Assembly (NCBI GenBank): GCA_964016885.1
Contig: OZ024760.1
Location: forward strand, 3,968,001-4,032,000
Source of the DNA: Eledone cirrhosa
Lineage: Eukaryota
Length of the DNA stretch: 64,000 bases
Direction: 5' to 3'
Shown: in pieces, positions 2,899-64,000 of the stretch
How positions within the stretch are numbered: the first letter of the stretch is position 1
How the letters are laid out: each line of letters begins with the position of its first letter
Program-made: the position numbers and the translations under genes
The notes under the pieces: generated by a model
Told to the model about the DNA's origin: nothing
Databases searched by the model: none
The model's input: the letters and a program-made list of their open reading frames with translations, nothing else

Positions 2899-2954
<56 letters not shown>

Positions 2955-6616: not shown

Positions 6617-6650
6617 GTTGAAAAGGAGTGGAAAAGATGGGAAAGACCAC

Positions 6651-8785: not shown

Positions 8786-8842
<57 letters not shown>

Positions 8843-10724
8843 TACTTATTGATAAGATGGTAATGGGGAATTGCAGGAGGAGACACACTGATCTTGCCAT
8901 GGGATGGATAGACTACAGAAAGGCATTTGACATGGTGCCTCATTCCTGGATCACCAAAAGCCTGGATATCTTCAGGGTGGCAGATAACATCAGACAGTTG
9001 CTAGGCAGGAGTATGGGGTCCTGGGAGACAGAGTTGACATCAACTGGAGTATCCTTGGGAAGCGTGAAGATCAAGAGAGGTATCTTCCAGGGAGATAGCC
9101 TGTCCCCTCTGTTGTTTGTCCTTGCCCTGATGCCCTTGACCATTATGCTGCGAAAAGTGAGAGCAGGATACAAGTTGGGAAGGGGAGAGCTTACCATCAA
9201 TCACCTCCTCTTCATGGACGATCTTAAGCTCTTCGGGAAAAGTGAGAAGGAGTTGGATGTGCTTGTTGACACTGTCCGTATTTTCAGCAGTGATATATGT
9301 ATGCAGTTTGGTATTGGTAAATGTGGAGTCATTGTGATGAAGAGGGGTAGGTTGAGCAGAAGTAACGGGATCCAGATACCAACAGGTGAGATGATAAAGG
9401 AAATTGACTCTGAGGAAGGATACAAGTATTTGGGCGTTCTGGAGGCTGATGGCATAAAGAACAAAAAAATGAAGGAATTGTTAAGAACTGAATACATTCG
9501 GAGAGTAAGGAGCGTATTGAAGTCACATCTGAACAGCAGAAATGCCATAAGCGCAGTAAATTCCCGAGCTGTGTCTATTATTAGGTACAGTGCGGGAATT
9601 CTGAGATGGAATGTTGCTGAACAAAAAGAAATGGATAGGAAGACTAGGAAGCTATTGACTATCTACAACATGTTCCACAAGAGGAGTGATGTCGATAGAC
9701 TCTACCTAAGGAGATCTGAGGGTGGAAGATGTCTTATCAGCATAGAGGACTGTGTTCAGATGGAGAAAAACAACCTATACAAATACGTGACCTATAGTAA
9801 GGAGCCAATGCTCAGAACTGTACTGAATGAGGGGACAGAAGGCCAGGGGATGTCCAAGGAGGAAATAACATCAAGGAGGAAGAGCAGCCTTAAGGGAAAA
9901 TCCCTTCATAGTACCTTCTTTGAGAAAACTGAATTTAGAGATCCACAGACATGGAACTGGTTGAGAAGAGGAGACCTCAAAAAGGCTACAGAAGGAATGC
10001 TAATGGCTGCGCAGGAGCAGGCCCTCAAAACGAAGTGGTTGAAGCACCATATCTACAAGGAGGAGGCTAGCCCACTGTGCAGGATCTGTGGAGAGAGAGA
10101 GGAGACTGTGGCTCACATTGTGTCCGAGTGTAAACACCTAGCCCAGACCCACTATAAGGGCTGGAGACACGATGTGATGGGCAGGGTGATCCACTGGCAC
10201 CTGTGCAAAGTAAACAATTTACCACATTCTGAGAAATGGTATGAGCATAGGCCAGAGGCGGTGATGGAGAACAATCAGGTGAAGGTGCTGTGGGATTTTA
10301 GGATACAGACGGACAAAAAACTGGAACACAATAGACCTGACCTGGTGGTTGTGGACAAAGAAAAAAGATCGTGCCTGATTGTGGATGTGGCCTGCCCGTT
10401 CGACACGAGAGTGCAAGAGAAGGAGAGGGAGAAAATTAACCGATACCAGGACCTAAAGTGGGAGGTGAAAAGGATTTGGAACTGCCATGAAGTCAAAGTG
10501 ATCCCGATTGTCATAGGCGCACTGGGGACTATCTCCAAAAGTTTCCAGGGATGGTTAAAGAAAATCGGCCCCTTCACGCTTTTTGGAACGCTTCAAAAGG
10601 CATGCTTGCTTGGAACAGCAAGAACCCTCCGATACGTCCTGAATATCTGAGGCTGCAGGTAGTGGCTTGATATTCAATCCAACGGACTTTCCAGTTAACC
10701 AACATCAATGACTGAGATTCAAGG
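8843..10724 (+). mobile_element. Dong/R4-clade non-LTR retrotransposon, 5'-truncated, in (AAT)n
   Basis: RT plus RLE ORF, short 3' UTR, (AAT)n on both sides. Dong elements are known to target TAA repeats. Confidence 0.88.
8857..10650 (+). CDS. RT (C-terminal part) + CCHC zinc finger + restriction-like endonuclease, uninterrupted 597 aa
   Basis: WIDYRKAFDMVPH, GIFQGDSLSP, HLLFMDD, CRICGEREETVAHIVSEC, RHD, NRPDLVV...IVDVACP, K..RYQDL, PIVIGALG. Confidence 0.9.
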   Translation: MVMGNCRRRHTDLAMGWIDYRKAFDMVPHSWITKSLDIFRVADNIRQLLGRSMGSWETELTSTGVSLGSVKIKRGIFQGDSLSPLLFVLALMPLTIMLRKVRAGYKLGRGELTINHLLFMDDLKLFGKSEKELDVLVDTVRIFSSDICMQFGIGKCGVIVMKRGRLSRSNGIQIPTGEMIKEIDSEEGYKYLGVLEADGIKNKKMKELLRTEYIRRVRSVLKSHLNSRNAISAVNSRAVSIIRYSAGILRWNVAEQKEMDRKTRKLLTIYNMFHKRSDVDRLYLRRSEGGRCLISIEDCVQMEKNNLYKYVTYSKEPMLRTVLNEGTEGQGMSKEEITSRRKSSLKGKSLHSTFFEKTEFRDPQTWNWLRRGDLKKATEGMLMAAQEQALKTKWLKHHIYKEEASPLCRICGEREETVAHIVSECKHLAQTHYKGWRHDVMGRVIHWHLCKVNNLPHSEKWYEHRPEAVMENNQVKVLWDFRIQTDKKLEHNRPDLVVVDKEKRSCLIVDVACPFDTRVQEKEREKINRYQDLKWEVKRIWNCHEVKVIPIVIGALGTISKSFQGWLKKIGPFTLFGTLQKACLLGTARTLRYVLNI

Positions 10725-11002
10725 AATAACAACAATAATAATAATAATAATAATAATAATGTTTTCTTTATTAACCACAAGGGTTTACATAAAGTAGACA
10801 TTAAGGACAGTACAGGACAATACAGGACGGTACAAATGGGCATTTCTGCGTGTAAAAAACAGAGGATGTAATAAAATAACAAAGAAAAATTCCCCAATAG
10901 GGGGGAGACTTCCGAGGGGCATTTGTGGAGAAAGCCCATTAAAAGACCACAGTGACCCTGACCACCAGGGCAAGTGCCCTCTCCCAGTTTTCCACCTTTA
11001 AT

Positions 11003-14000
11003 TTACAGACACATACTCAGAGAAGGCCCATTCATTCGGGCCATACTTGCTTCTCTCACCCATCTTTCAACAAAATGCTGGGAAGAGAGCACTTCCCCCT
11101 CTACCCTGATTTTCCTTTTCAAATAAAATTTGAAAAAGTTAATCAGGGCATCACCGAAGAGGTAAGTGCTCGTCTTCAGCCCTTTCAAACGTGTCCACCA
11201 TACTATCTCTTTCGCCATGGCCACCAGACAGATAAAAACTGCCTGCCCTTCCCGGCTAAAGGAAGAGGACGGAGCAATCCTCACGATGGACTCAGCTGAT
11301 AGCTGGATCCGTCCTACACGTGACAGCAGGTGTTCGACATAAACCCACAAGTCAGCAATGCTCGGACACTGGACGAGTGCGTGCAGGACGGTTTCGTCGC
11401 CCTGTGCGCATCTCGGACATGCCCGGCTGACGGCACCTCCATGCCTGTAGAGTTTATCCCGAACTGGCAAAGCACCCCGGTAGCACTGCCAGGCCAGGGA
11501 TTTCTGGAAGTTGTCCATAGGCCCCGGCCCGAAAGTCCTTCCGAAGAGATTGGCTAGTTGATTTTCGTCGACGCCTAGAGTTTCTCCAAGTACGTCGTCG
11601 CTCTTCCCCTCCACTAATCCCCTATAGAACGCCAAGGTGGAGTTTCCACCGATCACATTGCCCGATTGGTCGAGGGCTGTGAGCGCCTGAAGACATTCCA
11701 GTCTCCAAGCGCTCCCTCTCGGTCTTCGCTTGACCCAGGACTGCAGCTCCGTCAAGGAGACGAGCTGGGGAAAAACGTGTCTAGCAAAATGTCGAGGAAG
11801 AGGTGGAGATGTCGTAGCCTGAGCGCGTGTCTGCGAATCATCAGCCACGGCATGCCCAGCCCTCCACGTAGCGGGTGTTGACAGCAGATGGACCGCCTGA
11901 CCATCGGAGCGCGTCCCTTCCACAAGAAGCGAAAGAGCAAACGCTCCAGCGCAGTCAGGCGGGGCTTAGGACAAGGAACGACGGTCAGGCGGTAGTAGAT
12001 GACGGACACGATGTACGCGTTAGCCACCTCCGCTCGACCTTTCAGGGATAGCTTCCTCTCGGCCCATTTCTGGGTGAGAGAAGCCACCCTGATCGTCACC
12101 TCGTCCCAGTTTTTGTCCGTCTGGAGGTCTGGACCGAACCAGACCCCTAGCAATTTAACCGGTCCGTCCGTCCAGCGCCCGACGACGCTGTTGGACGGCA
12201 TGGACCTGCCTCTCCAGGTGCCGAGCTGCAGGCCCACTGACTTTTCCTGGTTGATCATTGCTCCTGTCACCGCTTCGTATTCTCTTAGTGTAGTGCCGAT
12301 CGCCTCGATGTGTTTGGCGTTCGACACCACTACGGTGACATCGTCCGCATATGCTGACACGGATCTTCCGCATCCTAGTTCGCGCGGGACCCCCCTCAAC
12401 GTCTCCAGTTTGTGCAGTAATGGCTCGAGAGTCAATACGTACAATAGGGACGAGAGGGGACATCCTTGGCGGACCGAGCGCATGATGTTGAACGGTTCCG
12501 AAAGGTGACCGTTCACTCACACTACAGAGCAGATGTCGCTGTGCATGGCAGCGATCCAGCCTCTGAAGACGGGCCCAAAGCCAGCCGCTCTCAGGACTGC
12601 CGCTAGGTAACGATGGTCGACCCTATCGAAGGCTTTCGACTGATCTAAACTGTGCCAGGTTCCCTAGCTACCCTCTCTACGATGTATCGCATGAGGTGGA
12701 GGTTGTCGTGGATGGATCTGTCGGAAATGGCGCATGTCTGTGCCTCTCCCACCAGTCCACCAACGACAAGCGCCAACCTCTTTGCTAGCACCTTGGCCAA
12801 AATCTTGAACTCTGTGTTTAGCATAGTTATGGGCCTAAAATTATCTATGTTATCCCCCTTGTTTGGATCCTTTCTCAGCAGCGCCACCGCTCCTCGGCTC
12901 ACAGAGCTGGGAATTCTCCCGTTTTGTTGCCAGTTGCAGTAGACGTCCGCCAAGAGGCCTCCGAACAAGTCTGGCATTTGTACGTAAAGTTCATAGGGCA
13001 GACCATCCAAACCAGGCGATTTACCCCTTGTGCAGCCAGTCATTGCCTCCCGTACTTCAGCGGTTGTTATCGGCTTTTCGCAACACTCCGCCTCAGTGGC
13101 CGAAAGCCGCGGCAGTCCGTCGAGCTAGACACTAAAGTCCATCCCTCGATCCGGCCCACCACTGCCCCCGAACAGTTGAGCGAAGTGTCGCTGAAAAGCT
13201 TCACACATTTGCCCATTGAACGGCTTTCGTCCCTCGTGTCTGAGAGCACGCACCCTAGCTCTGACAACGCAGCCTTCGTGCTTTGCATGAAGAACTGGTC
13301 AAGGGCCAATTTCGCCGCAAGTACGTCGGTCGCGATGCCTTTGCTAAGCGCCTCGTCTAATTTTCTAACTAATTCTCCCTCTGCTCTATTTTTCTCTATT
13401 GCTAAAGCCTTACTAAACCTAATGGACTCTATTCTAATTGCTCTTTTCAGAGCAAACCACCACTTGTTGTTGACGATGGCCCTCGTCAACGCCCGCTTAA
13501 CTAGTTCGCTAATCCGGTCTCTGTAGGCCTTGCGCGCTGGTAAGGACGCGTTTAGCTTCCAGTAGCCGGGTCCTCGTCTATGAAGCCTATCTAAGTCAAG
13601 CACACATCACGAATTTGTGGTCCGTGTAGCTGACTATCTTGAATTGTGGACAGCCTATGCTAGACCTAACTATTTCCCTACAAAATACTCTATCTAGATA
13701 TGATCTGGATGACCCTATGCGATTTGTCCAAGACCACATTGGTACATTCAGGAAATCCATTCGGTACCTGTCAGACAGTTCAAATCGCCTGAGCAGGTTG
13801 GTGAGACTCTTGCACCCTCCTTCCCTATCCACTAATCCCACACAATCCCAGCGTCCATCTAAGATCCCGTTCCAGTCGCCCACTAACACTAAAGAGCGGG
13901 ACGTTCCAAGAAAGGTTTCTAGACGCCGGAAGAAATCAGGCCGCCCTGCTCCTGTCGGGGCATAGACGGCCACTAACCTGAAAGCTTGCCCGTCTCCGCT

Positions 14001-14297
14001 GGTCACGTCCAGCACCACCAACTTACCTTCTGGGTCCAGGAAGATGGCCCGTATGGCAAGATCCAAACCTCTCCGAAAAAGCACAGCAACTCCTCCCCCC
14101 GATCCCGGACGGCTGGGAGATGCGTACACATCGTAGCCGCCGAAGATCGGTGCGAAGGCCCGTGCTTCGGAGATTCTGGTCTCGCTGATGGCCACTACAT
14201 CTATGTTTAGTGACCTGAGGTCGTTGAGCAGGTGGCCCTGCTTCCATGACGACCCCAAGCCACGCGCATTTATGCTGCCTATTCTGAGTGAGGTCAT
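11003..14297 (-). pseudogene. Tx1 ORF2 (APE-RT), disrupted
   Basis: Same motifs as copy A, split over several frames. Deletions near 11790, 12650 and 13215 relative to copy A. Confidence 0.9.
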
Positions 14298-14332
14298 GTT
14301 TAAAATAGAGTGGAAAAGATGGGAAAGACCAC

Positions 14333-16436
14333 TTACCGTACTTTTCGTAGAGGAGGGATGGTTTTTCCATCCCTTTTCACTTGATCGTCTGGTGAAGGGA
14401 CCGTTGAATCGTCCCTTCGGCTGGTCGTCGGCTCTTCTATGAGTATGTCCGAATATACTCTTCGGTTGAGTGTCCCTCCTAGGTCTCTGAAACCACCAAC
14501 TGCGTTGGGGAATTTCGTTTTAATGTTTGTATATTGTTTCTGTGCTATTTTTAGCAGTCTTATGTTAGTTGGCGTTTTGATTGGTGCTGGTATTATGTAG
14601 TCGTGTTGTGAAATATCTGTGTGTTCAATTATGTAAGTCATTAGTTTCTTGTTGTGTGTATTTATTGCCGTGCATTCGTTTTTCTGGGGGTGGGATGTGG
14701 TTCTGCTATTTTCTTGTCGTTGTTGCTGGGTGTGTGTGTTTTGTTGTTGTGTTTGCGATGTTGGTGCTTGTGGTGGTGGTGTTGTAGGTGTTGTTGGCGG
14801 TGGGGTTGTCGCCGGTGGTGATGGTGGTGCTAGTGTGGGTGGTGATGGTGTTGGTGGTGTTGCTGCTGTAAGTCTCTTTGCAGTAGCCTTTACCCTTTTT
14901 TCATTTCTTTCCTCCCTTTTCAAAGGCGACGATGCGCTGCTTCTGCGTTTGTGCCTTCTTACGACCTTTTGCCATCCCTCTCCCACCTCACACTCCATGT
15001 CTGATTCTGTGAGGTCGGGGAGGGGACCAGCTCCACTCTTTCACTTGTTGCTGTTGGTGATGTTTGCACTGGAGTCTCTGTTGCAGCTGCATTTGGTATT
15101 GCTGTTGTTGTTGTTAATACTTCCACTGCTGCTGCTGTTTTTGATTTCCGTGGCGTGGGTATGGGTGCCACGGACCTATCGTTCCTGGTTGCCGCTTGTC
15201 CTGTTGCTGGTAGCCGTGGAGGCGGTTTCGGAAGGAGGGGGTTTTCTCCTTTCTCAGGGTCTTCTCGTTGCAGAAGGCCCTGAGGTGAGTCTTCGATCCA
15301 CAGCGAAAGCATTTCGGGCGTTTGCCCTCAACACTTATGGGCAGTTGAGTGCCGTTATCGAAGTCTATCACATCCGGGATAGCTTCGATGCACTCCTGGT
15401 TGGTTTGGATTAACATCTCAATGGAGGTGCCGACTCAATCTTCTCTTACTTTTTTCTGTACTTGCAGTACAGTTGTTTTGTCCTCGATTCCGACGAGGAC
15501 AGACGCGGCCAGCCAAGATGGGGCCATCCCGGGGGGGACGTGGGTCAGTTTGACCCTCACAATTTTTTGCCCGCAGTAGGAGGGCACCAACACCATTTCC
15601 TCGCTCCTTAGGGTCACTAAGGATTGAGCTTTTGCCTCCTGGGGTGTGGCAAAAAGTACGTCTACGGTGGCATATTTCTTGCCTCGGGTGATGTGCGTTT
15701 TCCGCTGCCACACAGACCCCAAGGCTTTTTGTATTTGAGAATCTGTGGCTCTTTCAACCCTACGGGATTTTGTACTTACTGTACGGTACGTGACCGTACA
15801 GTGCTGTTGGGTTTCGAAAACATTTTCCGCTGCCTTGTAGATTGCTCGGTGTCCAGTTTTTGTCACCATCTTCTTCGCTTCCTCTAATTCTTCATTTGTT
15901 ATGAGGATGGTTTCCAGGTTCTTTGCGATACCTGCAAACGAGATTTGTTTTTCTTTGCTGCTGTTGTTGTTGTTGTCGTCGTCAGAGCTGCTGTTACTTT
16001 TGTTGTTGCTGCAGGTACTACGACTACTGCCGCCGCCGCTGTTGCTGTGGTTGTTGTTGTTGTTGCTGCTGCTAATGCTGTTGTTGTTTATGCTGCTGCT
16101 GATGCTGTTGCGGCTGCTACTGTTGTTTTCATTGTCACTGTTGCTGTTGTTATTACGGCTGCTACTGCTATTATTCCTGACGTCAGACGAATGAAATGGG
16201 TTTTCGTATTTCCCGCACACCTGTTTCGTCGTTGTCGTCGTCGTCGTGGAGAAATCTTGCACGCTTTGCACGAGACTTTTCTTTTCTGTCGTCGCTTGCG
16301 AAAGAGAAGGGAGGGAGAGAGACACATTTAAAGAAGGGAGGGAGAGAGACAATCTTCTCTCTGCTGTAGTGACGATTGAGGAAGAAGAAGACGGAATGAG
16401 TGGGAGTGACCTATGAAAATTCTTTTTCGTAGCCAT
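14333..16436 (-). pseudogene. Tx1 ORF1 (gag-like, zinc knuckle), disrupted, with Ser/Asn-rich N-terminus
   Basis: CFRCGSKTHLRAFC; YRTVSTKSRRVERATDSQIQKALG homologous to copy A; ends GKTIPPLRKVR. Confidence 0.8.
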
Positions 16437-16671
16437 GTTGTTTTTTTGTTTAAAATAAATATTGGGCACAAAACCCCAATAAGCAGTTATTTAACCCCGA
16501 AGGGCCAAATAACGGGCAGAAAGACCCCTCTCACGAGGAGGAGGGTGTTTTTGTCTACAAGTTGGTTAAAGTTTTAAACAATTTACAATTGTTATAGCGG
16601 TCAAAATTTACAATACCTTACAGAGCCGAGCCTCCGTCAACCAAAGCATTCAATAATAATAATAATAATAA

Positions 16672-16980
16672 TTGTTTTCTACTTTTGGCACAAGGCCAGC
16701 AATTACCCCAGTGCATTACTGGTGCTTTATTTTATCGATCCCGTAAAGATGAAAAGCAAAGTTAACCACGACGGCATTTGAACACAGAACGTAAATGGCC
16801 ATAATTCTAATAATAATAATGATGGATTCTAATTTAGGTACAGGGCCAACAATTTGGAGGAAGCAGAAGTCGATTATATCAACTCCGGTATTCAAATGGT
16901 ACTTTATTTTATCGACCCAGGAATGATGAAATGCAAATTTGAAACATCGGAGGGATTTGAACTTAGAATGTTGAAAATGG
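16672..16980 (-). mobile_element. Two partial tRNA-derived SINEs with ATT tails
   Basis: GTTTTCTACTTTTGGCACAAGGCCAGCAATTACCCC tail at 16674. A second, older copy lies at about 16822-16980. Confidence 0.75.
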
Positions 16981-19282: not shown

Positions 19283-20097
19283 ATAAACGGAAAAATGAAA
19301 CGAAATTTCATTTCCCACTCTTAGTACGGCTGTTACTTAAATATAAGTATGTACACGTACATACATATATGTATACAGACGTACAGTAGTATGTATATAT
19401 ATATATACATACATGCATATATATATGTACGTATGGATTCACCGAACATTTATTATAATGCTCGGTGTGTTTGTTAACAAACATCCCGTATTAAGCCGTA
19501 GTGTCTAGCAACCATCGTTGCTCGTTTGTTCAACACTGACAAAGGAACACTGTACTAGTTTCAAGCTTATTAGCTATCGTCAGCAACGTATACCTTCCTG
19601 CCAGATTGTTGAACGTATATACTTACCTTATGCATATTAACGGCTGAGTAGCCCAATTTGCATATCGAGTGGGTTAATCGGCCGGGTGCACCGAAAACGA
19701 TAAACGGAAAAAATGAAACGAAATTTCATTTCCCACTCTTAGTACGGCTGTTACTTAAATATAAGTATGTACACGTATGTACATACATATATGTATACAG
19801 ACGTTAATATGCATAAGGTAAGTATATACGTTCAACAATCTGGCAGGAAGGTATACGTTGCTGACGATAGCTAATAAGCTTGAAACTAGTACAGTGTTCC
19901 TTTGTCAGTGTTGAACAAACGAGCAACGATGGTTGCTAGACACTAGGCTTAATACGGGATGTTTGTTTACAAACACACCGAGCATTATAATAAATGTTCG
20001 GTGAATCCATACGTACATATATATATGTGTGCATGTATGTATATATATATACATACTACTGTACATCTGAATACATATATGTATGTACGTGTACATA

Positions 20098-20100
<3 letters not shown>
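19283..20100. mobile_element. About 417-bp hammerhead-bearing repeat: one monomer plus a partial copy, then an inverted partial copy (homologue of the 470-bp array unit)
   Basis: ATAAACGGAAAAATGAAACGAAATTTC at 19283 and 19700. 19804-20100 is the reverse complement of about 19345-19641. HHR at 19548-19588 (-) and 19856-19896 (+). Confidence 0.8.
19856..19896 (+). ncRNA. Minimal type-I hammerhead ribozyme motif
   Basis: CGTTG CTGACGA TAGC TAATAA GCTT GAAA CTAG TA CAGTG; palindromic stem III ACTAGT. Confidence 0.7.
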
Positions 20101-20128
<28 letters not shown>

Positions 20129-20130
<2 letters not shown>

Positions 20131-30270: not shown

Positions 30271-30555
30271 TTTAATGGAATATATGAAACAAGAAATATT
30301 AAATCCCTTTGTATAATTACTATCGATACTTCATATCTTATTACTAAAAAAAAAGTAAAAAATGTTTTTAAATTATCTGAAAACAAAAACAAAATGGACG
30401 AATAGTTTCTGCACAGACATTATGGACGCTTCTGGAACAACGAAGATCGTCTGCAAATTCAATGGTTCTTTATCGGTAACTTGATTCAAGATAAACAAGA
30501 CAATTTTACTAGTTTTGCTTCCTTTGCCAAATGTTTATACATGTAATTATTTTGA

Positions 30556-30862
30556 AGCGGTGCATTGGTAGTATCGGTAAAGCGTCAGACATTATGCTTT
30601 GCAGCATCGAGTTATGGTTCTTTAACGTTCTGATTTCAAATCCCGCCGCGGTTAACTTTGCCTTACAGGGTCAATAAAATAAAGCACCACTAATGCACTG
30701 GGGTAATTGCTGGCCTTGTGCCAGAAGTAGAAACAGTTATTTTTAAGTTTAAAATATATAATTGTTTCTACTTTTGGCACATGGCCAGAAATTACTCCAG
30801 TGCATTACTGGTGTTTTATTTTATCGACCCTTTAAGGATCAAAGGCAAAGTTAACCTCGGCG
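30556..30862. mobile_element. Tail-to-tail pair of tRNA-derived SINEs
   Basis: Plus copy 30556-30740 ending GGCCTTGTGCCAGAAGTAGAAAC; minus partial copy 30762-30862. Confidence 0.75.
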
Positions 30863-35045: not shown

Positions 35046-35136
35046 TATATATATATATATATTGCTTTGTGATTGATTGCCTCAAACAATTCGATTAGTA
35101 CCTGCTATATTGTGGCCACAACTTCGATTCATACCC

Positions 35137-49165: not shown

Positions 49166-49344
49166 TACATATATATATATATATTATGGAATACTGTTGG
49201 CTTCTTGCTACAATACTTTCTATACCTTTCATTTATATATACATATATGTATGTACGTATACATACATACTTACATTTAAGTAAGTGCCGTACTAAGAGT
49301 GAGAAATGAAATTTCGTTTCATTCTATTCCATTTATATATATAT

Positions 49345-49660: not shown

Positions 49661-52600
49661 ATAAAAACAAATAACGAAACGAAATTAAATTTCGTTTCGT
49701 TTGTAACTCACTTTTGTATGACTGACGCTCAAACAATTAAGTCAAAGATGTACATCCATATATGTATACTGAAATACTAGTATGTATATGAATACACAAA
49801 CGTATACATATGTAGATGTACCAAGTTTTTTTTTCACTGATCACTTTACTGTGAGTGGCCAGCTATTCTGTATGTAAACACACAGACAAACCGGTTTTTA
49901 GAGTCATACTGGTTTTTGAGGAAACATCTTTCCTCTATTCTCCAGAAAGCCAGACAAGGAATATTGAACTAGTTTCGTTGTTGTTACAACTCATCAGCAA
50001 TATTTACCTATCTTCCGGCCTCTCTAGAGAATCGTAAAAGCACATATCGCTATATGCTTTTTCTATGAAAATTAGTAGTGGGCAGACCAACTTGCATAGA
50101 GTGTGAGTAAGTACCGGTTCAACGGAGACGATAAAAACAAATAACGAAACGAAATTAAATTTCGTTTCGTTTGTAACTCACTTTTGTATGACTGACGCTC
50201 AAACAATTAAGTCAAAGATGTACATCCATATATGTATACTGAAATACTAGTATGTATATGAATACACAAACGTATACATATGTAGATGTACCAAGTTTTT
50301 TTTCACTGATCACTTTACTGTGAGTGGCCAGCTATTCTGTATGTAAACACACAGACAAACCGGTTTTTAGAGTCATACTGGTTTTTGAGGAAACATCTTT
50401 CCTCTATTCTCCAGAAAGCCAGACAAGGAATATTGAACTAGTTTCGTTGTTGTTACAACTCATCAGCAATATTTACCTATCTTCCGGCCTCTCTAGAGAA
50501 TCGTAAAAGCACATATCGCTATATGCTTTTTCTATGAAAATTAGTAGTGGGCAGACCAACTTGCATAGAGTGTGAGTAAGTACCGGTTCAACGGAGACGA
50601 TAAAAACAAATAACGAAACGAAATTAAATTTCGTTTCGTTTGTAACTCACTTTTGTATGACTGACGCTCAAACAATTAAGTCAAAGATGTACATCCATAT
50701 ATGTATACTGAAATACTAGTATGTATATGAATACACAAACGTATACATATGTAGATGTACCAAGTTTTTTTTTCACTGATCACTTTACTGTGAGTGGCCA
50801 GCTATTCTGTATGTAAACACACAGACAAACCGGTTTTTAGAGTCATACTGGTTTTTGAGGAAACATCTTTCCTCTATTCTCCAGAAAGCCAGACAAGGAA
50901 TATTGAACTAGTTTCGTTGTTGTTACAACTCATCAGCAATATTTACCTATCTTCCGGCCTCTCTAGAGAATCGTAAAAGCACATATCGCTATATGCTTTT
51001 TCTATGAAAATTAGTAGTGGGCAGACCAACTTGCATAGAGTGTGAGTAAGTACCGGTTCAACGGAGACGATAAAAACAAATAACGAAACGAAATTAAATT
51101 TCGTTTCGTTTGTAACTCACTTTTGTATGACTGACGCTCAAACAATTAAGTCAAAGATGTACATCCATATATGTATACTGAAATACTAGTATGTATATGA
51201 ATACACAAACGTATACATATGTAGATGTACCAAGTTTTTTTTTTCACTGATCACTTTACTGTGAGTGGCCAGCTATTCTGTATGTAAACACACAGACAAA
51301 CCGGTTTTTAGAGTCATACTGGTTTTTGAGGAAACATCTTTCCTCTATTCTCCAGAAAGCCAGACAAGGAATATTGAACTAGTTTCGTTGTTGTTACAAC
51401 TCATCAGCAATATTTACCTATCTTCCGGCCTCTCTAGAGAATCGTAAAAGCACATATCGCTATATGCTTTTTCTATGAAAATTAGTAGTGGGCAGACCAA
51501 CTTGCATAGAGTGTGAGTAAGTACCGGTTCAACGGAGACGATAAAAACAAATAACGAAACGAAATTAAATTTCGTTTCGTTTGTAACTCACTTTTGTATG
51601 ACTGACGCTCAAACAATTAAGTCAAAGATGTACATCCATATATGTATACTGAAATACTAGTATGTATATGAATACACAAACGTATACATATGTAGATGTA
51701 CCAAGTTTTTTTTTCACTGATCACTTTACTGTGAGTGGCCAGCTATTCTGTATGTAAACACACAGACAAACCGGTTTTTAGAGTCATACTGGTTTTTGAG
51801 GAAACATCTTTCCTCTATTCTCCAGAAAGCCAGACAAGGAATATTGAACTAGTTTCGTTGTTGTTACAACTCATCAGCAATATTTACCTATCTTCCGGCC
51901 TCTCTAGAGAATCGTAAAAGCACATATCGCTATATGCTTTTTCTATGAAAATTAGTAGTGGGCAGACCAACTTGCATAGAGTGTGAGTAAGTACCGGTTC
52001 AACGGAGACGATAAAAACAAATAACGAAACGAAATTAAATTTCGTTTCGTTTGTAACTCACTTTTGTATGACTGACGCTCAAACAATTAAGTCAAAGATG
52101 TACATCCATATATGTATACTGAAATACTAGTATGTATATGAATACACAAACGTATACATATGTAGATGTACCAAGTTTTTTTTTCACTGATCACTTTACT
52201 GTGAGTGGCCAGCTATTCTGTATGTAAACACACAGACAAACCGGTTTTTAGAGTCATACTGGTTTTTGAGGAAACATCTTTCCTCTATTCTCCAGAAAGC
52301 CAGACAAGGAATATTGAACTAGTTTCGTTGTTGTTACAACTCATCAGCAATATTTACCTATCTTCCGGCCTCTCTAGAGAATCGTAAAAGCACATATCGC
52401 TATATGCTTTTTCTATGAAAATTAGTAGTGGGCAGACCAACTTGCATAGAGTGTGAGTAAGTACCGGTTCAACGGAGACGATAAAAACAAATAACGAAAC
52501 GAAATTAAATTTCGTTTCGTTTGTAACTCACTTTTGTATGACTGACGCTCAAACAATTAAGTCAAAGATGTACATCCATATATGTATACTGAAATACTAG

Positions 52601-55600
52601 TATGTATATGAATACACAAACGTATACATATGTAGATGTACCAAGTTTTTTTTTCACTGATCACTTTACTGTGAGTGGCCAGCTATTCTGTATGTAAACA
52701 CACAGACAAACCGGTTTTTAGAGTCATACTGGTTTTTGAGGAAACATCTTTCCTCTATTCTCCAGAAAGCCAGACAAGGAATATTGAACTAGTTTCGTTG
52801 TTGTTACAACTCATCAGCAATATTTACCTATCTTCCGGCCTCTCTAGAGAATCGTAAAAGCACATATCGCTATATGCTTTTTCTATGAAAATTAGTAGTG
52901 GGCAGACCAACTTGCATAGAGTGTGAGTAAGTACCGGTTCAACGGAGACGATAAAAACAAATAACGAAACGAAATTAAATTTCGTTTCGTTTGTAACTCA
53001 CTTTTGTATGACTGACGCTCAAACAATTAAGTCAAAGATGTACATCCATATATGTATACTGAAATACTAGTATGTATATGAATACACAAACGTATACATA
53101 TGTAGATGTACCAAGTTTTTTTTTTCACTGATCACTTTACTGTGAGTGGCCAGCTATTCTGTATGTAAACACACAGACAAACCGGTTTTTAGAGTCATAC
53201 TGGTTTTTGAGGAAACATCTTTCCTCTATTCTCCAGAAAGCCAGACAAGGAATATTGAACTAGTTTCGTTGTTGTTACAACTCATCAGCAATATTTACCT
53301 ATCTTCCGGCCTCTCTAGAGAATCGTAAAAGCACATATCGCTATATGCTTTTTCTATGAAAATTAGTAGTGGGCAGACCAACTTGCATAGAGTGTGAGTA
53401 AGTACCGGTTCAACGGAGACGATAAAAACAAATAACGAAACGAAATTAAATTTCGTTTCGTTTGTAACTCACTTTTGTATGACTGACGCTCAAACAATTA
53501 AGTCAAAGATGTACATCCATATATGTATACTGAAATACTAGTATGTATATGAATACACAAACGTATACATATGTAGATGTACCAAGTTTTTTTTTCACTG
53601 ATCACTTTACTGTGAGTGGCCAGCTATTCTGTATGTAAACACACAGACAAACCGGTTTTTAGAGTCATACTGGTTTTTGAGGAAACATCTTTCCTCTATT
53701 CTCCAGAAAGCCAGACAAGGAATATTGAACTAGTTTCGTTGTTGTTACAACTCATCAGCAATATTTACCTATCTTCCGGCCTCTCTAGAGAATCGTAAAA
53801 GCACATATCGCTATATGCTTTTTCTATGAAAATTAGTAGTGGGCAGACCAACTTGCATAGAGTGTGAGTAAGTACCGGTTCAACGGAGACGATAAAAACA
53901 AATAACGAAACGAAATTAAATTTCGTTTCGTTTGTAACTCACTTTTGTATGACTGACGCTCAAACAATTAAGTCAAAGATGTACATCCATATATGTATAC
54001 TGAAATACTAGTATGTATATGAATACACAAACGTATACATATGTAGATGTACCAAGTTTTTTTTTCACTGATCACTTTACTGTGAGTGGCCAGCTATTCT
54101 GTATGTAAACACACAGACAAACCGGTTTTTAGAGTCATACTGGTTTTTGAGGAAACATCTTTCCTCTATTCTCCAGAAAGCCAGACAAGGAATATTGAAC
54201 TAGTTTCGTTGTTGTTACAACTCATCAGCAATATTTACCTATCTTCCGGCCTCTCTAGAGAATCGTAAAAGCACATATCGCTATATGCTTTTTCTATGAA
54301 AATTAGTAGTGGGCAGACCAACTTGCATAGAGTGTGAGTAAGTACCGGTTCAACGGAGACGATAAAAACAAATAACGAAACGAAATTAAATTTCGTTTCG
54401 TTTGTAACTCACTTTTGTATGACTGACGCTCAAACAATTAAGTCAAAGATGTACATCCATATATGTATACTGAAATACTAGTATGTATATGAATACACAA
54501 ACGTATACATATGTAGATGTACCAAGTTTTTTTTTCACTGATCACTTTACTGTGAGTGGCCAGCTATTCTGTATGTAAACACACAGACAAACCGGTTTTT
54601 AGAGTCATACTGGTTTTTGAGGAAACATCTTTCCTCTATTCTCCAGAAAGCCAGACAAGGAATATTGAACTAGTTTCGTTGTTGTTACAACTCATCAGCA
54701 ATATTTACCTATCTTCCGGCCTCTCTAGAGAATCGTAAAAGCACATATCGCTATATGCTTTTTCTATGAAAATTAGTAGTGGGCAGACCAACTTGCATAG
54801 AGTGTGAGTAAGTACCGGTTCAACGGAGACGATAAAAACAAATAACGAAACGAAATTAAATTTCGTTTCGTTTGTAACTCACTTTTGTATGACTGACGCT
54901 CAAACAATTAAGTCAAAGATGTACATCCATATATGTATACTGAAATACTAGTATGTATATGAATACACAAACGTATACATATGTAGATGTACCAAGTTTT
55001 TTTTTCACTGATCACTTTACTGTGAGTGGCCAGCTATTCTGTATGTAAACACACAGACAAACCGGTTTTTAGAGTCATACTGGTTTTTGAGGAAACATCT
55101 TTCCTCTATTCTCCAGAAAGCCAGACAAGGAATATTGAACTAGTTTCGTTGTTGTTACAACTCATCAGCAATATTTACCTATCTTCCGGCCTCTCTAGAG
55201 AATCGTAAAAGCACATATCGCTATATGCTTTTTCTATGAAAATTAGTAGTGGGCAGACCAACTTGCATAGAGTGTGAGTAAGTACCGGTTCAACGGAGAC
55301 GATAAAAACAAATAACGAAACGAAATTAAATTTCGTTTCGTTTGTAACTCACTTTTGTATGACTGACGCTCAAACAATTAAGTCAAAGATGTACATCCAT
55401 ATATGTATACTGAAATACTAGTATGTATATGAATACACAAACGTATACATATGTAGATGTACCAAGTTTTTTTTTCACTGATCACTTTACTGTGAGTGGC
55501 CAGCTATTCTGTATGTAAACACACAGACAAACCGGTTTTTAGAGTCATACTGGTTTTTGAGGAAACATCTTTCCTCTATTCTCCAGAAAGCCAGACAAGG

Positions 55601-57141
55601 AATATTGAACTAGTTTCGTTGTTGTTACAACTCATCAGCAATATTTACCTATCTTCCGGCCTCTCTAGAGAATCGTAAAAGCACATATCGCTATATGCTT
55701 TTTCTATGAAAATTAGTAGTGGGCAGACCAACTTGCATAGAGTGTGAGTAAGTACCGGTTCAACGGAGACGATAAAAACAAATAACGAAACGAAATTAAA
55801 TTTCGTTTCGTTTGTAACTCACTTTTGTATGACTGACGCTCAAACAATTAAGTCAAAGATGTACATCCATATATGTATACTGAAATACTAGTATGTATAT
55901 GAATACACAAACGTATACATATGTAGATGTACCAAGTTTTTTTTTCACTGATCACTTTACTGTGAGTGGCCAGCTATTCTGTATGTAAACACACAGACAA
56001 ACCGGTTTTTAGAGTCATACTGGTTTTTGAGGAAACATCTTTCCTCTATTCTCCAGAAAGCCAGACAAGGAATATTGAACTAGTTTCGTTGTTGTTACAA
56101 CTCATCAGCAATATTTACCTATCTTCCGGCCTCTCTAGAGAATCGTAAAAGCACATATCGCTATATGCTTTTTCTATGAAAATTAGTAGTGGGCAGACCA
56201 ACTTGCATAGAGTGTGAGTAAGTACCGGTTCAACGGAGACGATAAAAACAAATAACGAAACGAAATTAAATTTCGTTTCGTTTGTAACTCACTTTTGTAT
56301 GACTGACGCTCAAACAATTAAGTCAAAGATGTACATCCATATATGTATACTGAAATACTAGTATGTATATGAATACACAAACGTATACATATGTAGATGT
56401 ACCAAGTTTTTTTTTCACTGATCACTTTACTGTGAGTGGCCAGCTATTCTGTATGTAAACACACAGACAAACCGGTTTTTAGAGTCATACTGGTTTTTGA
56501 GGAAACATCTTTCCTCTATTCTCCAGAAAGCCAGACAAGGAATATTGAACTAGTTTCGTTGTTGTTACAACTCATCAGCAATATTTACCTATCTTCCGGC
56601 CTCTCTAGAGAATCGTAAAAGCACATATCGCTATATGCTTTTTCTATGAAAATTAGTAGTGGGCAGACCAACTTGCATAGAGTGTGAGTAAGTACCGGTT
56701 CAACGGAGACGATAAAAACAAATAACGAAACGAAATTAAATTTCGTTTCGTTTGTAACTCACTTTTGTATGACTGACGCTCAAACAATTAAGTCAAAGAT
56801 GTACATCCATATATGTATACTGAAATACTAGTATGTATATGAATACACAAACGTATACATATGTAGATGTACCAAGTTTTTTTTTCACTGATCACTTTAC
56901 TGTGAGTGGCCAGCTATTCTGTATGTAAACACACAGACAAACCGGTTTTTAGAGTCATACTGGTTTTTGAGGAAACATCTTTCCTCTATTCTCCAGAAAG
57001 CCAGACAAGGAATATTGAACTAGTTTCGTTGTTGTTACAACTCATCAGCAATATTTACCTATCTTCCGGCCTCTCTAGAGAATCGTAAAAGCACATATCG
57101 CTATATGCTTTTTCTATGAAAATTAGTAGTGGGCAGACCAA
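49661..57141 (-). repeat. 470-bp tandem array, left arm (about 16 monomers); hammerhead on the minus strand
   Basis: Unit starts ATAAAAACAAATAACGAAACG at 49661, 50131, 50600 and so on. The only differences seen are T8-T10 homopolymer lengths. Confidence 0.97.
49960..50004 (-). ncRNA. Minimal type-I hammerhead ribozyme (first of 16 in the left arm)
   Basis: Reverse complement AATATTG CTGATGA GTTG TAACAA CAAC GAAA CTAG TT CAATATT. Confidence 0.85.
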
Positions 57142-60100
57142 CTGCCCACTACTAATTTTCATAGAAAAAGCATATAGCGATATGTGCTTTTACGATTCTC
57201 TAGAGAGGCCGGAAGATAGGTAAATATTGCTGATGAGTTGTAACAACAACGAAACTAGTTCAATATTCCTTGTCTGGCTTTCTGGAGAATAGAGGAAAGA
57301 TGTTTCCTCAAAAACCAGTATGACTCTAAAAACCGGTTTGTCTGTGTGTTTACATACAGAATAGCTGGCCACTCACAGTAAAGTGATCAGTGAAAAAAAA
57401 ACTTGGTACATCTACATATGTATACGTTTGTGTATTCATATACATACTAGTATTTCAGTATACATATATGGATGTACATCTTTGACTTAATTGTTTGAGC
57501 GTCAGTCATACAAAAGTGAGTTACAAACGAAACGAAATTTAATTTCGTTTCGTTATTTGTTTTTATCGTCTCCGTTGAACCGGTACTTACTCACACTCTA
57601 TGCAAGTTGGTCTGCCCACTACTAATTTTCATAGAAAAAGCATATAGCGATATGTGCTTTTACGATTCTCTAGAGAGGCCGGAAGATAGGTAAATATTGC
57701 TGATGAGTTGTAACAACAACGAAACTAGTTCAATATTCCTTGTCTGGCTTTCTGGAGAATAGAGGAAAGATGTTTCCTCAAAAACCAGTATGACTCTAAA
57801 AACCGGTTTGTCTGTGTGTTTACATACAGAATAGCTGGCCACTCACAGTAAAGTGATCAGTGAAAAAAAAACTTGGTACATCTACATATGTATACGTTTG
57901 TGTATTCATATACATACTAGTATTTCAGTATACATATATGGATGTACATCTTTGACTTAATTGTTTGAGCGTCAGTCATACAAAAGTGAGTTACAAACGA
58001 AACGAAATTTAATTTCGTTTCGTTATTTGTTTTTATCGTCTCCGTTGAACCGGTACTTACTCACACTCTATGCAAGTTGGTCTGCCCACTACTAATTTTC
58101 ATAGAAAAAGCATATAGCGATATGTGCTTTTACGATTCTCTAGAGAGGCCGGAAGATAGGTAAATATTGCTGATGAGTTGTAACAACAACGAAACTAGTT
58201 CAATATTCCTTGTCTGGCTTTCTGGAGAATAGAGGAAAGATGTTTCCTCAAAAACCAGTATGACTCTAAAAACCGGTTTGTCTGTGTGTTTACATACAGA
58301 ATAGCTGGCCACTCACAGTAAAGTGATCAGTGAAAAAAAAACTTGGTACATCTACATATGTATACGTTTGTGTATTCATATACATACTAGTATTTCAGTA
58401 TACATATATGGATGTACATCTTTGACTTAATTGTTTGAGCGTCAGTCATACAAAAGTGAGTTACAAACGAAACGAAATTTAATTTCGTTTCGTTATTTGT
58501 TTTTATCGTCTCCGTTGAACCGGTACTTACTCACACTCTATGCAAGTTGGTCTGCCCACTACTAATTTTCATAGAAAAAGCATATAGCGATATGTGCTTT
58601 TACGATTCTCTAGAGAGGCCGGAAGATAGGTAAATATTGCTGATGAGTTGTAACAACAACGAAACTAGTTCAATATTCCTTGTCTGGCTTTCTGGAGAAT
58701 AGAGGAAAGATGTTTCCTCAAAAACCAGTATGACTCTAAAAACCGGTTTGTCTGTGTGTTTACATACAGAATAGCTGGCCACTCACAGTAAAGTGATCAG
58801 TGAAAAAAAAACTTGGTACATCTACATATGTATACGTTTGTGTATTCATATACATACTAGTATTTCAGTATACATATATGGATGTACATCTTTGACTTAA
58901 TTGTTTGAGCGTCAGTCATACAAAAGTGAGTTACAAACGAAACGAAATTTAATTTCGTTTCGTTATTTGTTTTTATCGTCTCCGTTGAACCGGTACTTAC
59001 TCACACTCTATGCAAGTTGGTCTGCCCACTACTAATTTTCATAGAAAAAGCATATAGCGATATGTGCTTTTACGATTCTCTAGAGAGGCCGGAAGATAGG
59101 TAAATATTGCTGATGAGTTGTAACAACAACGAAACTAGTTCAATATTCCTTGTCTGGCTTTCTGGAGAATAGAGGAAAGATGTTTCCTCAAAAACCAGTA
59201 TGACTCTAAAAACCGGTTTGTCTGTGTGTTTACATACAGAATAGCTGGCCACTCACAGTAAAGTGATCAGTGAAAAAAAAACTTGGTACATCTACATATG
59301 TATACGTTTGTGTATTCATATACATACTAGTATTTCAGTATACATATATGGATGTACATCTTTGACTTAATTGTTTGAGCGTCAGTCATACAAAAGTGAG
59401 TTACAAACGAAACGAAATTTAATTTCGTTTCGTTATTTGTTTTTATCGTCTCCGTTGAACCGGTACTTACTCACACTCTATGCAAGTTGGTCTGCCCACT
59501 ACTAATTTTCATAGAAAAAGCATATAGCGATATGTGCTTTTACGATTCTCTAGAGAGGCCGGAAGATAGGTAAATATTGCTGATGAGTTGTAACAACAAC
59601 GAAACTAGTTCAATATTCCTTGTCTGGCTTTCTGGAGAATAGAGGAAAGATGTTTCCTCAAAAACCAGTATGACTCTAAAAACCGGTTTGTCTGTGTGTT
59701 TACATACAGAATAGCTGGCCACTCACAGTAAAGTGATCAGTGAAAAAAAAACTTGGTACATCTACATATGTATACGTTTGTGTATTCATATACATACTAG
59801 TATTTCAGTATACATATATGGATGTACATCTTTGACTTAATTGTTTGAGCGTCAGTCATACAAAAGTGAGTTACAAACGAAACGAAATTTAATTTCGTTT
59901 CGTTATTTGTTTTTATCGTCTCCGTTGAACCGGTACTTACTCACACTCTATGCAAGTTGGTCTGCCCACTACTAATTTTCATAGAAAAAGCATATAGCGA
60001 TATGTGCTTTTACGATTCTCTAGAGAGGCCGGAAGATAGGTAAATATTGCTGATGAGTTGTAACAACAACGAAACTAGTTCAATATTCCTTGTCTGGCTT

Positions 60101-63100
60101 TCTGGAGAATAGAGGAAAGATGTTTCCTCAAAAACCAGTATGACTCTAAAAACCGGTTTGTCTGTGTGTTTACATACAGAATAGCTGGCCACTCACAGTA
60201 AAGTGATCAGTGAAAAAAAAACTTGGTACATCTACATATGTATACGTTTGTGTATTCATATACATACTAGTATTTCAGTATACATATATGGATGTACATC
60301 TTTGACTTAATTGTTTGAGCGTCAGTCATACAAAAGTGAGTTACAAACGAAACGAAATTTAATTTCGTTTCGTTATTTGTTTTTATCGTCTCCGTTGAAC
60401 CGGTACTTACTCACACTCTATGCAAGTTGGTCTGCCCACTACTAATTTTCATAGAAAAAGCATATAGCGATATGTGCTTTTACGATTCTCTAGAGAGGCC
60501 GGAAGATAGGTAAATATTGCTGATGAGTTGTAACAACAACGAAACTAGTTCAATATTCCTTGTCTGGCTTTCTGGAGAATAGAGGAAAGATGTTTCCTCA
60601 AAAACCAGTATGACTCTAAAAACCGGTTTGTCTGTGTGTTTACATACAGAATAGCTGGCCACTCACAGTAAAGTGATCAGTGAAAAAAAAACTTGGTACA
60701 TCTACATATGTATACGTTTGTGTATTCATATACATACTAGTATTTCAGTATACATATATGGATGTACATCTTTGACTTAATTGTTTGAGCGTCAGTCATA
60801 CAAAAGTGAGTTACAAACGAAACGAAATTTAATTTCGTTTCGTTATTTGTTTTTATCGTCTCCGTTGAACCGGTACTTACTCACACTCTATGCAAGTTGG
60901 TCTGCCCACTACTAATTTTCATAGAAAAAGCATATAGCGATATGTGCTTTTACGATTCTCTAGAGAGGCCGGAAGATAGGTAAATATTGCTGATGAGTTG
61001 TAACAACAACGAAACTAGTTCAATATTCCTTGTCTGGCTTTCTGGAGAATAGAGGAAAGATGTTTCCTCAAAAACCAGTATGACTCTAAAAACCGGTTTG
61101 TCTGTGTGTTTACATACAGAATAGCTGGCCACTCACAGTAAAGTGATCAGTGAAAAAAAAACTTGGTACATCTACATATGTATACGTTTGTGTATTCATA
61201 TACATACTAGTATTTCAGTATACATATATGGATGTACATCTTTGACTTAATTGTTTGAGCGTCAGTCATACAAAAGTGAGTTACAAACGAAACGAAATTT
61301 AATTTCGTTTCGTTATTTGTTTTTATCGTCTCCGTTGAACCGGTACTTACTCACACTCTATGCAAGTTGGTCTGCCCACTACTAATTTTCATAGAAAAAG
61401 CATATAGCGATATGTGCTTTTACGATTCTCTAGAGAGGCCGGAAGATAGGTAAATATTGCTGATGAGTTGTAACAACAACGAAACTAGTTCAATATTCCT
61501 TGTCTGGCTTTCTGGAGAATAGAGGAAAGATGTTTCCTCAAAAACCAGTATGACTCTAAAAACCGGTTTGTCTGTGTGTTTACATACAGAATAGCTGGCC
61601 ACTCACAGTAAAGTGATCAGTGAAAAAAAAACTTGGTACATCTACATATGTATACGTTTGTGTATTCATATACATACTAGTATTTCAGTATACATATATG
61701 GATGTACATCTTTGACTTAATTGTTTGAGCGTCAGTCATACAAAAGTGAGTTACAAACGAAACGAAATTTAATTTCGTTTCGTTATTTGTTTTTATCGTC
61801 TCCGTTGAACCGGTACTTACTCACACTCTATGCAAGTTGGTCTGCCCACTACTAATTTTCATAGAAAAAGCATATAGCGATATGTGCTTTTACGATTCTC
61901 TAGAGAGGCCGGAAGATAGGTAAATATTGCTGATGAGTTGTAACAACAACGAAACTAGTTCAATATTCCTTGTCTGGCTTTCTGGAGAATAGAGGAAAGA
62001 TGTTTCCTCAAAAACCAGTATGACTCTAAAAACCGGTTTGTCTGTGTGTTTACATACAGAATAGCTGGCCACTCACAGTAAAGTGATCAGTGAAAAAAAA
62101 ACTTGGTACATCTACATATGTATACGTTTGTGTATTCATATACATACTAGTATTTCAGTATACATATATGGATGTACATCTTTGACTTAATTGTTTGAGC
62201 GTCAGTCATACAAAAGTGAGTTACAAACGAAACGAAATTTAATTTCGTTTCGTTATTTGTTTTTATCGTCTCCGTTGAACCGGTACTTACTCACACTCTA
62301 TGCAAGTTGGTCTGCCCACTACTAATTTTCATAGAAAAAGCATATAGCGATATGTGCTTTTACGATTCTCTAGAGAGGCCGGAAGATAGGTAAATATTGC
62401 TGATGAGTTGTAACAACAACGAAACTAGTTCAATATTCCTTGTCTGGCTTTCTGGAGAATAGAGGAAAGATGTTTCCTCAAAAACCAGTATGACTCTAAA
62501 AACCGGTTTGTCTGTGTGTTTACATACAGAATAGCTGGCCACTCACAGTAAAGTGATCAGTGAAAAAAAACTTGGTACATCTACATATGTATACGTTTGT
62601 GTATTCATATACATACTAGTATTTCAGTATACATATATGGATGTACATCTTTGACTTAATTGTTTGAGCGTCAGTCATACAAAAGTGAGTTACAAACGAA
62701 ACGAAATTTAATTTCGTTTCGTTATTTGTTTTTATCGTCTCCGTTGAACCGGTACTTACTCACACTCTATGCAAGTTGGTCTGCCCACTACTAATTTTCA
62801 TAGAAAAAGCATATAGCGATATGTGCTTTTACGATTCTCTAGAGAGGCCGGAAGATAGGTAAATATTGCTGATGAGTTGTAACAACAACGAAACTAGTTC
62901 AATATTCCTTGTCTGGCTTTCTGGAGAATAGAGGAAAGATGTTTCCTCAAAAACCAGTATGACTCTAAAAACCGGTTTGTCTGTGTGTTTACATACAGAA
63001 TAGCTGGCCACTCACAGTAAAGTGATCAGTGAAAAAAAAACTTGGTACATCTACATATGTATACGTTTGTGTATTCATATACATACTAGTATTTCAGTAT

Positions 63101-64000
63101 ACATATATGGATGTACATCTTTGACTTAATTGTTTGAGCGTCAGTCATACAAAAGTGAGTTACAAACGAAACGAAATTTAATTTCGTTTCGTTATTTGTT
63201 TTTATCGTCTCCGTTGAACCGGTACTTACTCACACTCTATGCAAGTTGGTCTGCCCACTACTAATTTTCATAGAAAAAGCATATAGCGATATGTGCTTTT
63301 ACGATTCTCTAGAGAGGCCGGAAGATAGGTAAATATTGCTGATGAGTTGTAACAACAACGAAACTAGTTCAATATTCCTTGTCTGGCTTTCTGGAGAATA
63401 GAGGAAAGATGTTTCCTCAAAAACCAGTATGACTCTAAAAACCGGTTTGTCTGTGTGTTTACATACAGAATAGCTGGCCACTCACAGTAAAGTGATCAGT
63501 GAAAAAAAAACTTGGTACATCTACATATGTATACGTTTGTGTATTCATATACATACTAGTATTTCAGTATACATATATGGATGTACATCTTTGACTTAAT
63601 TGTTTGAGCGTCAGTCATACAAAAGTGAGTTACAAACGAAACGAAATTTAATTTCGTTTCGTTATTTGTTTTTATCGTCTCCGTTGAACCGGTACTTACT
63701 CACACTCTATGCAAGTTGGTCTGCCCACTACTAATTTTCATAGAAAAAGCATATAGCGATATGTGCTTTTACGATTCTCTAGAGAGGCCGGAAGATAGGT
63801 AAATATTGCTGATGAGTTGTAACAACAACGAAACTAGTTCAATATTCCTTGTCTGGCTTTCTGGAGAATAGAGGAAAGATGTTTCCTCAAAAACCAGTAT
63901 GACTCTAAAAACCGGTTTGTCTGTGTGTTTACATACAGAATAGCTGGCCACTCACAGTAAAGTGATCAGTGAAAAAAAAACTTGGTACATCTACATATGT
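57142..64000 (+). repeat. 470-bp tandem array, inverted right arm (at least 14.6 monomers, runs off the window); hammerhead on the plus strand
   Basis: Reverse complement of the left-arm unit; apex AGTAGTGGGCAG-ACCAA-CTGCCCACTACT. Confidence 0.97.
57223..57267 (+). ncRNA. Minimal type-I hammerhead ribozyme (first of 15 visible in the right arm)
   Basis: 7-bp stem I AATATTG/CAATATT, core CTGATGA, stem II GTTG/CAAC, GAAA, palindromic stem III AACTAGTT; predicted cleavage after GUU at 57260. Confidence 0.85.

Follow-up and report, generated by a model that had tools for sequence, protein, structure and literature searches.

Two kinds of described element come closest to the repeats analysed here. 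Animal non-LTR retrozymes are presented in the accessible text of PMC7229834 and of bioRxiv 10.64898/2026.07.22.740005 as non-coding tandem repeats low in GC, with units that measure a few hundred bp and contain one type I hammerhead apiece, its palindromic stem III being weak; they are present in tens of thousands of copies, have large target duplications and co-occur with Penelope-like elements (PLEs). The family studied here has the same features. The class is known already, and a link to PLEs has been suggested on the grounds that the two co-occur and show pLTR homology. The preprint still calls retrozyme movement unresolved, and a model in which a circle is copied has been proposed in outline (PMC4209133; PMC7229834). 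According to the same preprint 21 frog PLEs matched retrozyme families, whereas no homologous pLTR was found here in 44 loci. A further difference lies in the inverted arms, the tail and the fixed priming sites of the present family, which do not figure in the retrozyme descriptions that the accessible text of PMC7229834 and bioRxiv 10.64898/2026.07.22.740005 gives.

PLE insertions are described as partial tandems with an inverted truncated copy, a tail of 30-40 bp on one side and target duplications of 8-10 bp (PMC8557442; PMC3846280). As in the family described here, the target is AT-rich or (TA)n, the duplications are near 10 bp and a hammerhead lies upstream of two start sites (PMC8557442; PMC3846280; PMC11167929). 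Unlike the PLE insertions of these accounts, the family has no ORF, its tail measures 55-60 or 70-75 nt rather than 30-40, an arm can hold up to about 31 perfect units, and the tail asymmetry, called "optional" in PLEs, is obligatory in two-armed copies. Competing models exist for the origin of the tandem and inverted ends and of the tails (PMC8557442; PMC11167929; PMC3846280). In vitro a PLE protein acting on AT-rich DNA cuts both strands and extends them, with two internal start sites on the RNA which mark the limits of the tail (PMC11167929). Non-autonomous Chlamys elements such as MRC1 resemble the present family in being non-coding PLE dependants with multicopy head-to-tail insertions; the Chlamys elements as reported generally match autonomous families at the 3' end, whereas no such match was found here, and their clade is described without canonical hammerheads, whereas here the ribozyme is kept (PMC8557442).

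Two related units in one window

The window, that is the whole stretch of 64,000 nucleotides of Eledone cirrhosa DNA that was analysed, carries at 19283-20103 an insertion made of 1.24 units plus an inverted 0.72 unit of a 417-bp family. The RNA sense is the minus strand, and positions in the unit ("u") are counted on the strand used by a first-pass annotation of the same DNA. A complete unit of subfamily A (19283..19699, minus), whose outer end at 19283 we call site 1, is followed by a second, partial tandem unit, u1-100 (19700..19804, minus), and by an inverted arm running from u360 down to u60 (19802..20103, plus), whose outer end is site 2; the tandem and the inverted arm overlap by 3 nt (19802-19804). 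This is the order, tandem and then inversion, that had been annotated. The insertion had also been described as bounded by TA, which holds for the right end, in a (TA)n target (20104..20129, no strand); the left flank is merely a short AT-rich stretch, and no target duplication is resolvable at the locus. A hairpin lies 10 nt inward of site 1 (19293..19314, minus; 3'-proximal in RNA sense) and is longer in the 470-bp unit described below, and the internal position of site 2 (u56-60; 19338..19342, minus) falls in the loop of a small predicted hairpin.

The complete unit contains a type I hammerhead (19544..19595, minus) with a palindromic 2-bp stem III and a U.U at the base of stem II, its predicted cut falling between 19553 and 19552. 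A second core lies inside the inverted arm (19861-19890, plus strand). Two consecutive hammerheads, taken as the mark of an active copy, occur in the big array and at other 417-type loci but not in the copy at 19283, which has one core per strand and therefore could not release a monomer itself. Its arms mismatch at 6 of 300 sites, and we infer that it is a short, older product of the mechanism proposed below. No ORF of at least 200 aa lies over this copy or over the big-array locus, and the minus strands of the 417 and 470 units fold well above shuffles (z=-9.2 and -10.4).

The big array is made of 470-bp units of subfamily D. Its site-1 arm holds 15.9 units (49661..57143, minus; hammerhead of the first unit at 49944-50015), and the inverted site-2 arm of the same insertion (57142..64000, plus) continues to window-equivalent 65012 and ends at u76. 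The array thus ends about 1 kb past the window, in non-array flank, and a 12-bp target duplication encloses the whole of it; because one duplication encloses it, the 15.3 kb array is a single insertion unit and not a chimera. GC is 0.35, and the 29 scored units are identical apart from indels. The junction is a near-perfect palindrome (432/425) between arms of nearly mirror length. By eye, a short inverted repeat is seen at 49480-49580, just upstream of the TA run of the array. A single-armed 90-bp stump (49247..49336, plus), corresponding to u1-90 on the minus strand with 7 mismatches in 90, ends at site 1 in TA; the terminal fragment annotated at about 49250-49335 is therefore real, its lineage being 417-type and not that of the big array.

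That the 417 unit is a homologue of the big array with collinear landmarks was borne out: the landmarks are all present, and a global alignment of the two units scores 185 against -43 +/- 14 for 300 dinucleotide shuffles (z=16.6), the homology running along the whole unit. Segment by segment, u1-70, the AT-rich u71-200 and the hammerhead segment had local scores that beat all 300 shuffles; the score of u335-417 was marginal, being reached by 4 of 300, and u200-235 was not significant against the 300 shuffles. Segments outside the hammerhead being significant, the homology extends beyond the ribozyme, and the alignment does not depend on the hammerhead alone. The word "miniature" fits the insertion at 19283 and not its unit.

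Genome-wide (3.0 Gb in 1,796 contigs, rich in (TA)n runs) there are at least 40,074 exact matches to the hammerhead-core pattern, with 0 for a control, and from this core count the family may, as a rough estimate, account for the order of 0.5% of the genome. The part of PMC6962438 that is accessible gives only a count of 235 hammerheads in a squid. Units measure 417-499 bp, in subfamilies of about 417-430, 466-499 and 466-470 bp. The 417 unit gave 1,343 candidate places, 40 of them scored, with full-length matches 94-98% identical; the 470 unit gave 381, 25 of them scored, and among the 150 matches listed the identity is 99-100%. Arms reach 31 units in the longest arrays found. The 31-unit array (L165-L166, G000:C1:5738327-5752443) belongs to the 466-bp subfamily, and its unit variants recur in a roughly 7-unit pattern, which suggests later local duplication.

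Assembled contigs of four sequencing runs, of a kind that is unrecorded, contain the head-to-tail joint in all cases. One run also has loose ends in TA at u71 and u75, which were left uncounted because the run possibly stems from the assembly's own sample. A closed 503-nt contig in run X4, labelled as a different organism, covers the whole unit 49661-50130 in a young haplotype; it may be an RNA circle, tandem DNA or contamination.

The window holds other repeats. Two related LINE copies with endonuclease and RT ORFs lie on the minus strand (2918-8141 and 10725-16490), 96.7-97.4% identical over 3.7 kb and differing in their upstream ORFs. Between them is a 602-aa open RT frame (8842-10650, plus) which by eye ends in an apparent restriction-like endonuclease domain. 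A dispersed SINE-like family, in part as partial tandems, occurs at 2511-2944, 16652-16971, 30546-30862, 39521-39873, 41756-41948 and 43180-43858, and a weak tRNA match (1481-1551, minus; 36.5 bits) is probably a tRNA-derived repeat.

The hammerhead and its covariation

The hammerhead core and its three stems are found in 14 of 14 aligned units. These 14 units represent five subfamilies, and their cores are identical except at two positions where hammerheads tolerate change, N7 (C/U) and H17 (A, U, C). The annotated changes in stem I (CGTTG/CAGTG versus TATTG/CAATA) and stem II (AGC/GCT versus GTTG/CAAC) are as stated; the 417 unit has in addition the U.U mismatch at the base of stem II, a feature shared with the axolotl HHR_Amex2 as it is described, and two G.U pairs in stem I. 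Rfam reports no ribozyme at the gathering score anywhere in the window and no hammerhead match to the 417 unit up to E=5, while the 470 unit has a sub-threshold match to HH9 (E=6.7e-8, with 37.7 bits where the gathering score is 52). The predicted scissile junction is preserved in all but one of 247 units. When two ribozyme fragments were co-folded, a dimer paired through the palindrome was predicted for the 470 unit only; a hammerhead with a two-pair palindromic stem III has been reported to work poorly in monomeric form and to be active in dimers (PMC4209133).

Covariation had been claimed for the hammerhead, and it holds there and weakly outside. Of the pairs predicted for the 417 unit, 29 have changed on both sides in the 470 unit, and 20 of these 29 keep their pairing (null mean 12.6, p=0.004). 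With the ribozyme left out, 16 of 24 do so for 417 versus 470 (p=0.02 to 0.04), and the other lineage pairs, including B versus D and D3 versus A, are not significant in this comparison (p=0.10-0.69). A test on a fixed structure found two-sided changes in 18 of 71 pairs against 1-4 in slid controls, a result that leans to support since the structure was derived from two of the test's own rows. For one pair of stem II there are 9,305 matches, of which the first 100 listed consist entirely of the two paired forms; of the two possible unpaired intermediates, one makes up 3 of the 9,305 copies. The swap of paired forms at that pair is one evolutionary event. Hairpin-symmetric changes can also arise by template switching. 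The proposed selection on ribozyme function is supported, at the level of sequence, by the covariation together with the near-invariant core, in a small number of lineages (about 3-5 independent).

Insertion ends, targets and Penelope-like elements

The 470 family was sampled at the 25 scored places plus the continuation of the window's array, giving 27 insertions; these loci are best hits and hence biased to young, long arrays. Two-armed insertions number 24, all of a single polarity with both arms reading inward, and three are single-armed. Where both ends are visible, 23 of 23 pair u1 with u71-76 (p=1e-7 if the sites were drawn independently), one of them having a 13-nt arm that was read by eye; one further two-armed insertion ends in an N gap. 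In the 417 family 61 loci were examined, of which 24 are distinct two-armed insertions with both ends, the others being single-armed or complex insertions, duplicates, members of other families, or cases truncated at the edge of the locus. Twenty of the 24, one of them read from context, pair u1 with u52-60; the remaining four have an eroded or interrupted end, and none of the 24 repeats a site. At the sampled loci the outer ends fall at two fixed sites and the junction position is free. The combination of u1 with a fixed second end is the signature of the Penelope "tail". The layout recurs at 24 two-armed 470 loci with different junctions; the inversion in the big array is therefore biological, as had been suspected. 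The class of the element, a retrozyme that depends on Penelope, and the fixed second end are additions to the first-pass annotation.

Targets are TA-rich in both families. Among 22 targets of the 470 family, 7 are informative and have target duplications of 11-13 bp, lengths which count up to 4 nt overlapping the element ends; of the others, 14 consist of TA alone and one is ambiguous. Arm ends fall in u1-45, at the terminal hairpin, in 13 of 48 cases (p=0.0004), and near the scissile junction in 0 of 48. Arm lengths are uncorrelated; the site-1 arm is the longer in 16 of 23, and either can be the longer. Junction homology of at least 2 nt occurs in 6 of 17 (p=0.06), and microhomology is near chance in the 470 family; 16 of 24 junctions of the 417 family scored as inserts, a measure confounded by divergence.

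The units have a hammerhead each, are short, tandem, below 50% GC and free of ORFs, and have duplications longer than 4 bp at 470 targets. Their insertions combine a partial tandem with an inverted truncated copy, have a tail on one end and lie in AT-rich or (TA)n targets; an ORF with RT and GIY-YIG, as in an autonomous PLE, is absent from the unit. Judged on sequence, the family can be placed under the definition of a non-LTR retrozyme and appears to work like a non-autonomous PLE.

Candidate helpers are plentiful in this genome. GIY-YIG gave 10,597 candidate matches, of which 150 were scored. A Pfam scan of four ORFs found RT in all four and GIY-YIG in three, and autonomous RT+GIY-YIG elements have one tailed end and one tail-less inverted end in TA at three loci (L135, L143, L176). 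Several autonomous PLE families carry hammerhead-like motifs with a palindromic stem III, and two families have copies 99-100% identical and are as young as the 470 family. In three families the hammerhead-like motif starts UUGA rather than CUGA; L174 has the same motif at both ends. L174 and L176 (G000:C1) belong to young families and have Penelope-like open frames of 938 and 1096 aa. The window itself has a 5'-truncated Penelope-like ORF (33409-35046, minus; RT and C-terminal GIY-YIG, open for about 540 aa), bounded by TA runs, with nearest copies 97-99% identical and without sequence link to the retrozyme.

None of the 44 GIY-YIG loci examined, and none of about six autonomous families, has sequence shared with the unit. 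Searches with variant-hammerhead patterns, one of which missed the commonest spacing while another was swamped by the main families, gave no ORF-bearing element that shares the unit, nor did ten loci of odd hammerheads. A tblastn search with four PLE proteins matched only separate neighbouring elements, and no ORF in the unit. Terminal likeness to two PLE families (best p=0.004 among 20 tests) does not survive. What the helper searches turned up were decayed PLE ends and an ancient relative family. At L099, L112, L188 and L192-L195 an ancient diverged hammerhead family has the same stem III palindrome, and L112 holds an inverted pair.

Models for the two arms

The explanation that we favour, and hold to be probable, is that a non-LTR retrozyme borrows the RT and the GIY-YIG endonuclease of a PLE, with a circular template and two primed arms. 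Its parts are not equally firm. The family is very probably a PLE-dependent retrozyme; independent priming of the two arms has good probability; that the template is circular is somewhat favoured. The most specific version is put forward tentatively: each two-armed insertion would be the work of one PLE complex, with priming on both target strands at two sites that are defined by structure in one circular ribozyme RNA, and each of the two cDNAs could go round this RNA up to tens of times. Tandem copies would be transcribed, and paired hammerheads would cut out a monomer which is then closed into a circle. The PLE protein would nick both target strands about 10 bp apart, and the two nicks would prime cDNA synthesis on one RNA at different places, site 1 and site 2. 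A cDNA would make between 0 and about 30 turns of the circle, often halting at the terminal hairpin, and the two cDNA ends would be joined with 0-2 nt homology. L1 twin priming, in which two target nicks prime two cDNAs and produce a 5' inversion with little junction homology, differs in that its second priming site is variable; the present family has a fixed second site and can be multimeric in both arms.

In 218 units from 26 young loci, with the older 31-unit array set aside, the number of substitutions per unit pair is 0.15 for units of one arm, 0.13 for units of opposite arms and 1.66 for units of different loci. A variant is fixed at 13 of the 26 loci, and 8 variants occur at one locus each. 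Arms that share locus-specific variants fit, on balance, two cDNAs rolled off one circular RNA, and a circle read by two strand-displacing enzymes would be the simplest account of the variants, the junction integrity, the arm ends and the arm lengths. The fixed haplotypes also fit a short insertion that expands locally very fast, and assembly polishing could homogenise units too. A tetramer circle, considered for L067, was rejected, as the variant is not periodic in both arms.

An alternative with the same element and the same class of helper assumes an uncut, linear read-through template, long arrays coming from long parents or from unequal crossing-over after insertion, the latter being the model of bioRxiv 10.64898/2026.07.22.740005. 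Two reports count against the circle: in vitro a PLE could insert without hammerhead cleavage (PMC11167929), which also suits a linear template, and of 9 frog retrozyme dimers 8 showed no cleavage (bioRxiv 10.64898/2026.07.22.740005). The weak stem II of the 417 lineage points the same way, as do the variants common to several units in L066 and in the older 31-unit array (2-unit and roughly 7-unit patterns), where local remodelling or duplication is visible. However, young arrays are star-like: nearly all of their unfixed variants are confined to one unit, and shared ones turn up at no more than 2 of 26 loci. Private variants are common to the whole of a two-armed array, in the window to all 29 scored units, which requires that the array passed through one monomer and that both arms then grew at once. 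The ribozyme pairing is also maintained. We consider a linear template unlikely.

The model of PMC3846280 would produce a single cDNA, the inverted arm being a self-primed fold-back copy and the second end being set by the endonuclease cutting at the tail. Six of 24 junctions, that of the window's big array with its nearly mirror-length arms among them, lie within 12 nt of a perfect fold-back (p=0.001), as self-priming predicts and against the explanation that we favour. The other 18 are offset by 39-231 nt with little homology, two of the six lie in the terminal palindrome, which is a general stop hotspot (the 13 of 48 ends given above), and in vitro both strands are extended (PMC11167929). 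Self-priming seems to us less plausible still than a linear template.

The remaining alternatives have little to recommend them. Non-autonomous Helitron-like elements form tandem arrays with a subterminal hairpin at AT-rich targets, and the family resembles them in all three respects; a DNA rolling-circle element of this kind, or a plain satellite with an incidental hammerhead, is nevertheless very improbable in view of the 11-13-bp target duplications, the random inner truncation, the fixed pair of ends that read inward, and the occurrence of this layout in PLEs of the genome which encode RT. That the inversions are long-read fold-back chimeras of the assembly, as the near-perfect palindrome at the big array's junction might suggest, is hardly credible given their fixed polarity and outer ends, different flanks, target duplications and unequal arms, and the diverged arms of older copies.

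No published description of the family, or of a two-site rule in retrozymes, was found in a search of mainly open-access literature. What is new with the PLE-dependent retrozyme proposed here is end-level evidence of PLE-type priming and a two-site rule which is sharp and countable. There are thousands of young, protein-free insertions with scorable ends, together with young and intact candidate helpers, and both the movement of retrozymes and the origin of Penelope ends and tails are therefore testable. If the proposal is true, the one-sided Penelope tail would be the obligatory result of two-site priming, and multi-kilobase palindromic "satellites", 15 kb in this window, would be born complete. 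The marks at the insertion ends suggest that a long mirror-image array enters the genome in one step, and a small RNA circle may in this way lead directly to palindromes of satellite size.
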